This document shows positions 960 to 15,501 of a DNA stretch of 19,900 nt, in pieces. The stretch lies in IMG/VR virus record IMGVR_UViG_2734482551_000002. One strand, given 5' to 3'. The translations under genes were made by a program, and so were the position numbers. Positions within the stretch are counted from its first letter, which is position 1. Each line of letters begins with the position of its first letter. The notes under the pieces were generated by a model, which made no database searches, was not told where the DNA came from, and worked only from the letters and a program-made list of their open reading frames with translations. Origin of the DNA: a virus. Taxonomy: Duplodnaviria; Heunggongvirae; Uroviricota; Caudoviricetes.

Positions 960-1126
960 GAGGTTGCCCTGTATTCAGTGTCGCTGATTTGTATTGTCTG
1001 AAGTTGTTTTTACGTTAAGTTGATGCAGATCAATTAATACGATACCTGCGTCATAATTGATTATTTGACGTGGTTTGATGGCGTAGATGCACGTTGTGAC
1101 ATGTAGATGATAATTATTATCATTTT

Positions 1127-1184
1127 GCGGGTCCTTTCCGGCGATCCGACAGGTTACGGGGCGGAAGGCGCGCGGGTTTTCGCT
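1127..1184 (+). other. cosQ/cosN region of the cos packaging site; cosN carries a non-lambda right half
   Basis: GGGTCCTTTCCGGCGATCCGACAGGTTACG followed by GGGCGGAAGGCG (1159-1170) and then CGCGGGTTTTCGCTATTTATG. The flanks match lambda on both sides, but the 12-nt cohesive-end position reads GGGCGGAAGGCG where lambda has GGGCGGCGACCT, as I remember it. Confidence 0.7.

Positions 1185-1867: not shown

Positions 1868-1893
<26 letters not shown>
1348..1893 (+). CDS. nu1: Terminase small subunit Nu1
   Basis: 181-aa ORF MEVNKKQLADIFGASIRTIQNWQEQGMPVLRGGGKGNEVLYDSAAV..., essentially identical to lambda gpNu1, with an N-terminal winged helix-turn-helix. Same length as lambda nu1 and located directly after cosB. 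Confidence 0.97.
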
Positions 1894-5574
<3,681 letters not shown>

Positions 5575-5594
<20 letters not shown>

Positions 5595-6930
5595 TCTCCC
5601 GCATATTGCCAGCATGGCTTTTAATGAGCCGCTGATGCTTGAACCCGCCTATGCGCGGGTTTTCTTTTGTGCGCTTGCAGGCCAGCTTGGGATCAGCTGC
5701 CTGACGGATGCAGTATCCGGCGACAGCCTGACTGCCGGAGAGGCACCCGCGGCGCTGGCGTTATCCGGTGATGATGACGGACCACGACAGGCCCGCAGTT
5801 ATCAGGTAATGAACGGCATCGCCGTGCTGCCGGTGTCCGGCACGCTGGTCAGCCGGACGCGGGCGCTGCAGCCGTACTCGGGGATGACCGGTTACAACGG
5901 CATTATCGCCCGTCTGCAACAGGCTGCCAGCGACCCGATGGTGGACGGCATTCTGCTCGATATGGACACACCGGGCGGAATGGTGGCGGGAGCATTTGAC
6001 TGCGCTGACATCATCGCCCGTGTGCGTGACATAAAGCCGGTATGGGCGCTGGCCAATGACATGAACTGCAGCGCAGGTCAGCTGCTTGCCAGTGCCGCCT
6101 CCCGGCGTCTGGTCACGCAGACCGCCCGGACAGGCTCCATCGGCGTCATGATGGCTCACAGTAATTACGGCGCTGCACTGGAGAAACAGGGCGTGGAAAT
6201 CACGCTGATTTACAGCGGCAGCCATAAGGTGGATGGCAACCCCTACAGCCATCTACCGGATGATGTCCGGGAAACATTGCAGTCCCGGATGGATGCAACC
6301 CGCCGGATGTTTGCACAGAAGGTGTCGGCATATACCGGCCTGTCCGTGCAGGCTGTGCTGGATACCGAGGCTGCAGTGTACAGCGGTCAGGAGGCCATTG
6401 ATGCCGGACTGGCTGATGAACTTGTTAACAGTACCGATGCGNNNNNNNNNNNNNNNNNNNNNNNNNNNNNNNNNNNNNNNNNNNNNNNNNNNNNNNNNNN
6501 NNNNNNNNNNNNNNNNNNNNNNNNNNNNNNNNNNNNNNNNNNNNNNNNNNNNNNNNNNNNNNNNNNNNNNNNNNNNNNNNNNNNNNNNNNNNNNNNNNNN
6601 NNNNNNNNNNNNNNNNNNNNNNNNNNNNNNNNNNNNNNNNNNNNNNNNNNNNNNNNNNNNNNNNNNNNNNNNNNNNNNNNNNNNNNNNNNNNNNNNNNNN
6701 NNNNNNNNNNNNNNNNNNCTCACGGACGCGAAGAACAGGCACGCGTGCTGGCCGAAACCCCCGGTATGACCGTGGAAACGGCCCGCCGTATTCTGGCCGC
6801 AGCACCACAGAGTGCACAGACGCGCAGTGACACTGCGCTGGATCGTCTGATGCAGGGGGCACCGGCACCGCTGGCTGCAGGTAACCCGGCATCTGATGCC
6901 GTTAACGATTTGCTGAACACACCAGTGTAA
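5575..6930 (+). CDS. C: Prohead protease / minor capsid protein C (S49-type), interrupted by a masked N block at 6442-6718
   Basis: Starts at GTG 5575, overlapping the B 3' end as in lambda. The product VTAELRNLPHIASMAFNEPLMLEPAYARVFFCALAGQLGIS... matches lambda gpC. The frame continues through the N run and resumes with HGREEQARVLAETPGMTVETARRILAAAPQSAQTRSDTALDRLMQGAPAPLAAGNPASDAVNDLLNTPV, the lambda C/Nu3 C-terminus. The gene is about 36 nt longer than I remember lambda C to be, if the N-run length is real. Confidence 0.9.
6289..6930 (+). CDS. nu3: Scaffolding protein Nu3 (in-frame internal start within C), partly masked
   Basis: In-frame ATG at 6289 (MDATRRMFAQKVSAYTGLSVQAVLDTEAAVYSGQEAIDAGLADELVNSTDA...) at the position equivalent to lambda nu3, sharing the C stop. 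The central part is hidden by the N block. Confidence 0.8.
   Translation: MDATRRMFAQKVSAYTGLSVQAVLDTEAAVYSGQEAIDAGLADELVNSTDAXXXXXXXXXXXXXXXXXXXXXXXXXXXXXXXXXXXXXXXXXXXXXXXXXXXXXXXXXXXXXXXXXXXXXXXXXXXXXXXXXXXXXXXXXXXXXHGREEQARVLAETPGMTVETARRILAAAPQSAQTRSDTALDRLMQGAPAPLAAGNPASDAVNDLLNTPV
6442..6718. other. Masked block (277 N) inside C/nu3
   Basis: Continuous run of N. Flanking sequence is in frame with C on both sides. Confidence 0.99.
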
Positions 6931-8394: not shown

Positions 8395-8793
8395 ATGACG
8401 AAAGATGAACTGATTGCCCGTCTTCAGGAGCTGGGTGAGCAATTGAACCGCGATGTCAGTTTGACGGGAACGAAAGAAGAACTGGCGCTTCGTGTGGCAG
8501 AGCTGGAAGAAGAGCTTGATGACACGGATGAAACTGCCGGTCAGGACACCCCTCTCAGCCGGGAAAATGTGCTGACCGGGCATGAAAATGAGGTGGTATC
8601 AGCGCAGCCGGATACCGTGATTCAGGATACGGCTGAACTGGTCACGGTCGTGGCACTGGTGACGCTGCATACTGATGCACTTCACGCCACGCGGGATAAA
8701 CCTGTGGCATTTGTGCTGCCGGGAACGGCGTTTCGTGTCTCTGCCGGTGTGGCAGCCGAAATGACAGAGCGCGGCCTGGCCAGAATGCAATAA
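8395..8793 (+). CDS. FI: DNA packaging protein FI
   Basis: 132-aa product from ATG 8395 (MTKDELIARLQELGEQLNRDVSLTGTKEELALRVAELEEELDDTDETAGQDTPLSRENVLTGHENEV...ERGLARMQ) matching lambda gpFI. The track start at 8356 lies inside the E-FI intergenic hairpin. Confidence 0.95.
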   Translation: MTKDELIARLQELGEQLNRDVSLTGTKEELALRVAELEEELDDTDETAGQDTPLSRENVLTGHENEVVSAQPDTVIQDTAELVTVVALVTLHTDALHATRDKPVAFVLPGTAFRVSAGVAAEMTERGLARMQ

Positions 8794-15207: not shown

Positions 15208-15501
15208 NNNNNNNNNNNNNNNNNNNNNNNNNNNNNNNNNNNNNNNNNNNNNNNNNNNNNNNNNNNNNNNNNNNNNNNNNNNNNNNNNNNNNNNNNNNNN
15301 NNNNNNNNNNNNNNNNNNNNNNNNNNNNNNNNNNNNNNNNNNNNNNNNNNNNNNNNNNNNNNNNNNNNNNNNNNNNNNNNNNNNNNNNNNNNNNNNNNNN
15401 NNNNNNNNNNNNNNNNNNNNNNNNNNNNNNNNNNNNNNNNNNNNNNNNNNNNNNNNNNNNNNNNNNNNNNNNNNNNNNNNNNNNNNNNNNNNNNNNNNNN
15501 N
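15208..15501. other. Masked block (294 N) covering the L 3' end, the L-K junction and the region upstream of the annotated K start
   Basis: Continuous run of N. L is open on entry and the K frame is open on exit. Confidence 0.99.

Follow-up and report, generated by a model that had tools for sequence, protein, structure and literature searches.

The cohesive-end site of phage lambda, cosN, is functionally asymmetric. Many mutations at bp 7-12 of the site have a minimal phenotype, whereas the symmetric mutations in the left half are severe (Xu and Feiss 1991, summarised in PMC4669245): G2C, for instance, lowers the phage yield ~10-fold while its symmetric counterpart, C11G, is silent (PMC4669245). 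A rule of left-half conservation for cosN has likewise been stated (as cited in PMC9303873). According to Feiss et al. 2015 (PMC4669245), the asymmetry is contingent on the proximity of cosB, where R3-bound TerS places the TerL responsible for the bottom-strand nick (between bp 12 and 13); bp 7-12 tolerate change because the cosB-bound terminase positions the bottom-strand nick (PMC4669245). In the same work, right-half differences are called common in lambda-like phages and the CG pairs that flank the nicks are described as highly conserved, as is cosQ, a 7-bp site (PMC4669245). The cosN sequences of N15 and phiD326 differ from that of lambda at positions 9 and 12, and that of Gifsy-1 differs at positions 8, 9 and 11; the lambda and N15 sequences are used equally well by lambda TerL, and a 2-bp mismatch between ends reduces yield about fourfold (PMC4669245). 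LLS and mEp213 have the cohesive end GGGCGGCGCGCT (PMC12315714). In the portions of these sources available to us, tolerance data cover one to three changes, in comparison with the block of five bases described here, which removes two symmetric pairs.

The window analysed in this study is a 19,900-nucleotide stretch of a Caudoviricetes record in IMG/VR (IMGVR_UViG_2734482551_000002). It is the left arm of a lambda-like prophage and begins ~1.16 kb upstream of cos. The site has the lambda-type features, comprising cosQ, the cosN left half, the flanking CG pairs, the R3-I1-R2-R1 layout and adjacent Nu1 and A genes. The heptamer GGGTCCT at 1129-1135 on the plus strand, which we take to be cosQ, the packaging-termination element, matches lambda bp 48473-48479 in all seven bases and lies at an equal distance upstream of cosN. 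By homology, the plus-strand cosN core occupies 1157-1172 and consists of the 12-bp cohesive end with CG on each side, CG^GGGCGGAAGGCG^CG. The two CG dinucleotides (1157-1158 and 1171-1172) are 12 bp apart, the same as in lambda, and the nicks predicted by homology to lambda fall at 1158/1159 on the top strand and at 1170/1171 on the bottom strand.

To the right of cosN lies cosB, with the terminase small-subunit binding site R3 at 1208-1223 on the plus strand (extent of R3 taken from PMC9026076), which is identical to lambda bp 50-65 and shares the cosN-R3 spacing of lambda. R2 is inverted, on the minus strand at 1266-1281 (AAGAAAGGAAACGACA), and R1 is on the plus strand at 1309-1324 (TGTCGTTTCCTTTCTC), so that all three core sequences match lambda exactly and at lambda spacing; the interval containing I1 shows a few substitutions relative to lambda, at positions 71, 73, 78 and 97. 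The terminase genes follow, both on the plus strand and both full length: Nu1, the small subunit (1348-1893, 181 aa), at 98.3% amino-acid identity to lambda, and A, encoding gpA, the large subunit and cos endonuclease (1868-3793, 641 aa), at 99.4%. A first-pass annotation of this DNA had described the flanks, the R sites, Nu1 and gpA as lambda-like, and the alignments bear this out. Judged by its sequence, the window cos is a member of the lambda-type cos family, with its order of cosQ, cosN and cosB; of the features compared, only the degree of cosN symmetry (below) is lower than in lambda.

The gene order after cos is Nu1, A, W, B, C, D, E, FI, FII, Z, U, V, G, T, H, M, L, K, I and J, which amounts to the complete lambda set of 20 head and tail genes, at 93-100% amino-acid identity, with J incomplete at the window end. 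Two runs of N were found, at 6442-6718 (277 bases) and at 15208-15501 (294 bases); the first interrupts C/Nu3 and the second covers L at its 3' end and K at its 5' end. A divergent C segment and a long ORF of 312 aa labelled 'L' were dismissed as artefacts, as the runs of N account for both. Upstream of cos there are two small minus-strand ORFs, at 258-683 and 726-959, lying where the closest E. coli prophage has genes annotated as DUF1398 and YlcI/YnfO family.

Within this lambda-like setting it is the cohesive end's right half that departs from lambda. Positions 1140-1190 read, in succession, GGCGATCCGACAGGTTACG, GGGCGGAAGGCG and CGCGGGTTTTCGCTATTTATG, and the central 12-mer occurs once in the window, at 1159-1170, where shuffled sequences give an expectation of 0. 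The first-pass annotation had placed the cohesive end at 1160-1171, which these coordinates correct. The lambda reference (NC_001416) starts with GGGCGGCGACCT and ends with GATCCGACAGGTTACG, and the lambda cohesive end that the annotation gave for comparison was accordingly right. On the plus strand, the left half GGGCGG (1159-1164) is identical to lambda, and the right half (1165-1170) is AAGGCG, where lambda has CGACCT, through the changes C7A, G8A, A9G, C10G and T12G with no change in length. An earlier description of this as a same-length replacement of six bases thus stands as to length, but the number of differing positions is five, because C11 is identical in lambda and the window.

The differences are confined to cohesive-end positions 7-12, and the next nearest lie at -17 and +35. 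Background divergence between the window and lambda around cos is 2.6% of sites (1,061 aligned bases); on that background, five or more changes within a single 6-mer have a probability of ~6e-8 per 6-mer, or ~7e-5 across all 6-mers of the 1,061-base stretch. The right-half change is a block replacement rather than background drift. Rotational two-fold symmetry of cosN amounts to 8/16 bp in the window and 10/16 bp in lambda, the latter in agreement with PMC9026076. The window retains the pairs -2/14, -1/13 and 2/11, gains 4/9 and loses 3/10 and 6/7. Read 5' to 3', the nick contexts are TTACG^GGGCGG on the top strand and CCGCG^CGCCTT on the bottom strand (CCGCG^AGGTCG in lambda), and CG^NG is preserved at the predicted nick sites on both strands. 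The G+C content of the overhang is 10/12 in the variant and in lambda, and nearest-neighbour melting temperatures calculated under the same conditions are 46.3 °C and 47.8 °C, respectively.

We compared this allele with the natural and engineered variants described above. Like the window, N15 and phiD326 have changes in the right half only, including T12G, and keep the left half and the CG pairs. The cohesive end in the N15 sequence is GGGCGGCGTCCG, which has two changes in contrast to five in the window and carries T at position 9 where the window has G; moreover, N15 has its own, single-R cosB, whereas the cosB of the window is that of lambda. Gifsy-1 and mEp213/LLS resemble the window in that their cohesive ends are lambda-like and have a natural variant right half, but the bases are different and the changes fewer, and Gifsy-1 alters C11, which the window keeps. 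The engineered lambda cosN mutants, in the published material available to us, carry single or few-base changes, unlike the natural five-base block of the window; the natural allele may be able to work because engineered changes at bp 7-12 have little phenotype (PMC4669245). On this comparison of sequences, the window allele is one of the natural right-half cosN variants, with five of six bases replaced as opposed to two or three in the published examples as far as those sources describe them. The view that lambda cosN is strongly conserved, voiced in the initial reading, holds for the left half and the flanking CG pairs but not for the right half, where differences are common (PMC4669245).

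The allele recurs widely. Among 5,426 complete E. coli genomes, 155 contain the exact 36-mer that includes it (ACGGGGCGGAAGGCGCGCGGGTTTTCGCTATTTATG), the closed genome E24377A being one of them; the places number 166, of which 150 are chromosomal and 16 are on plasmids. The canonical 52-mer was found in the complete E. coli genomes at 8,407 places in 4,484 genomes, so the variant makes up about 2% of E. coli lambda-type cos sites (166 places versus ~8,400). PLSDB holds 23 plasmid records with the allele, hosted by E. coli, Shigella sonnei, E. albertii and E. fergusonii; most are 34-92 kb long, and many are close to 46 kb. Partitioned pattern scans of IMG/VR returned 78 contigs with AAGGCG, and in 78/78 the sequence on the left was ACG-GGGCGG, such that the left half was invariant; canonical cos sites in IMG/VR numbered at least 112, among 120 contigs listed. 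A scan of species-representative genomes gave one genuine match, Escherichia sp. E1V33, together with eight chance matches in GC-rich bacteria.

Variant cos sites are embedded in 35 left and 32 right flank haplotypes, a few of which are common to canonical sites, and the linkage of the allele to nearby SNPs is only partial. Given these many recombined flank haplotypes, the allele is an old recombining polymorphism and therefore neither an error nor a private mutation. Two phage records carry it, PhiR46_1 (PV340565) and YDC107_1 (CP025712). PhiR46_1 is entered as a complete phage genome, for which ECOR13 is given as the host; its infectious status rests on the GenBank record, and a literature search on the PhiR phages found no paper describing it. 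A 46,419-bp circular 'plasmid' (CP056845, locus L230) shares 97% identity with PhiR46_1 over the lysis-terminase region. Circular 'plasmid' replicons of ~46 kb pair the variant cos with lambda-type Nu1 and A, and these are probably phage or phage-plasmid genomes. One metagenome-derived IMG/VR contig of 56,122 bp (IMGVR_UViG_3300045988_113976) contains two copies of the variant cos (L165 and L173), and may be a concatemeric assembly or two adjacent elements. When the phage collection was queried from cohesive-end position 1, no record began at the variant 12-mer, and an IMG/VR scan with the left flank omitted from the pattern yielded no contig beginning there. A literature search for the 12-mer returned only an unrelated plant paper; the cosN survey of Vahanian et al. 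(2017) may already catalogue the allele.

Other right halves are present at low numbers. Those seen in several IMG/VR copies are CAGGCG (4), CAGACG (3), AGACCT (2), TGACCT (2) and GAGCGT (2), and CAACCT, CTGACG, AAGCGT, AAGGCT and CGACCG were each seen once. Minor alleles on lambda-type flanks occur at IMG/VR loci L084 and L145-L228, and phage PhiR70_1 (L002) has the minor allele GGGCGGAGACCT on flanks of the same type. The lambda-type-flank alleles in IMG/VR form two clusters, one of CGACCT with at most one change and the other of AAGGCG-like sequences with four or five; no intermediates with two or three changes were found on lambda-type flanks among the IMG/VR alleles. As a pattern of sequences, this suggests that the variant either was imported from a diverged lineage or belongs to a small family of alleles.

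These data are best explained if the window carries a working lambda-type cos site with a natural allele of the cohesive-end sequence, a reading in which we have high confidence, with nick positions and an overhang that we infer from lambda. We propose that Nu1 bound to R3, R2 and R1 would anchor gpA at cosN, with IHF bending the DNA at I1. One gpA would nick the top strand after ...TTACG, in dependence on the conserved left half GGGCGG, and the cosB-anchored gpA would make the bottom-strand nick 12 bp farther right, following CCGCG of that strand. The latter nick would be largely indifferent to bases 7-12 because its position is set by cosB. Both the tolerance of bp 7-12 and the anchoring role of cosB are carried over here from published work, and would be expected to apply to the window as they do to lambda. 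As the allele obeys each of the published rules set out above, cleavage is predicted at the homologous positions, leaving the 5' overhang GGGCGGAAGGCG. Virion DNA would then have 12-nt 5' overhangs, the left one reading GGGCGGAAGGCG and the right one being its complement, and variant ends would anneal to each other approximately as stably as those of lambda do, but with 5/12 mismatches against lambda ends. The low frequency of the allele is compatible with a mild cost.

The initial reading had allowed the replacement three possible meanings: the cohesive end is altered, the prophage is defective in packaging, or there is a local error. An error of sequencing or assembly in this record could draw on the two runs of N, because of which the record is not flawless finished sequence. 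However, hundreds of assemblies made independently share the identical 12-mer and flanks, closed genomes (E24377A, for example) included, and with the allele in 155 E. coli genomes, 78 IMG/VR contigs, 23 plasmids and two phage records an error is effectively excluded; we give it a negligible probability. A replacement that disables cosN, leaving the window as part of a packaging-defective, decaying prophage, would fit with the change of five of six right-half bases, the loss of two of lambda's five symmetric pairs, the rarity of the allele and the failure of any phage record or IMG/VR contig to begin at the variant end. Against this, the allele sits on dozens of haplotypes, and the TerL ORF is intact as often beside it (38/43 variant cos sites) as near canonical cos (43/56). 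The full set of head and tail genes is retained, C and L each being broken by a run of N, and the allele is found in PhiR46_1, a phage deposited with a propagation host, and in the related ~46-kb circular replicons. Published tolerance of right-half change (PMC4669245) points the same way. The suggestion of a defective prophage thus finds no support, and we regard it as highly unlikely. The altered cohesive end is the reading that the data favour, as an ordinary natural allele with a predicted overhang.

A functional variant end might alternatively require a terminase whose endonuclease specificity has evolved with it. The Feiss laboratory reportedly obtained lambda gpA suppressor mutations that broaden the nuclease specificity of the enzyme, which would make such an adjustment conceivable. 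A TerL alignment covered 39 variant and 46 canonical loci, and its columns were scanned across the lambda-like sequences, 37 variant and 36 canonical. No gpA residue segregated with the cosN allele among these 37 and 36 sequences, the largest frequency difference being 0.20. Identity to lambda gpA among the TerLs next to the variant cosN spans 64-100% around a median of 99.4%, no different from canonical sites, and one variant locus (L179) pairs the allele with a gpA 100% identical to that of lambda; the window gpA is itself nearly so. A matching change in terminase is therefore very improbable. Selection could, in turn, hold the allele as a separate cohesive-end compatibility group, in which five mismatches prevent annealing with canonical ends, mixed-cos chromosomes consequently fail to circularise, and some lambdoid exchanges are thereby limited. 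In keeping with this are the two allele clusters without two- or three-change intermediates, the preserved G+C content and the published fourfold loss of yield from a mismatch of only 2 bp (PMC4669245). The allele nevertheless recombines freely onto many flank haplotypes and TerL types, and the lineages are therefore not isolated. Furthermore, mixed ends would rarely arise, because packaging normally takes place between two identical cos sites of one concatemer, and neutral variation or import from a diverged lineage fits the data equally well. We consider a compatibility group very unlikely. The more specific proposal that AAGGCG is a second compatibility type in Escherichia lambda-type phages, selected at low frequency rather than drifting, for example against mixed-end chromosomes, is a speculation to which we give only slight credence. 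A working cos site carrying a natural cohesive-end allele is thus the reading that we retain.

Some loci with lambda-type cos flanks encode a TerL ~64-66% identical to that of lambda. By tblastn, N15 TerL (gene 2, locus L010) is 87% identical to the window gpA (1868-3793); the identity of the lambda and N15 TerLs is stated as 64.9% in PMC4669245.

As a natural example, the allele is stronger support for cosN being functionally asymmetric than are the published examples in the portions of that literature available to us: five of six right-half bases appear replaceable under an otherwise-lambda terminase, whereas the left half and flanking CG pairs are invariably retained. In practice, annotation of cos by the canonical 12-mer misses ~3% of E. 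coli genomes (155/5,426) and a family of phage-like replicons of ~46 kb, and at the bench neither lambda ends nor lambda-cos reagents would anneal with the ends of variant phages. The significance is otherwise modest, as this is ordinary natural variation that indicates no defect and raises no new question.

Two further observations concern the sequence around cosN. A second tight cluster of differences from lambda lies at window positions 1083-1088 (lambda -76 to -71), in a non-coding stretch upstream of cosQ, where lambda has CCTCCA and the window GTAGAT, with 4/6 bases changed. The 6-mer AAGGCG is also present just to the left of R3 (GGTTTAAGGCGTTTCC); a local duplication was considered as its source, and we judged it to be a chance 6-mer match.
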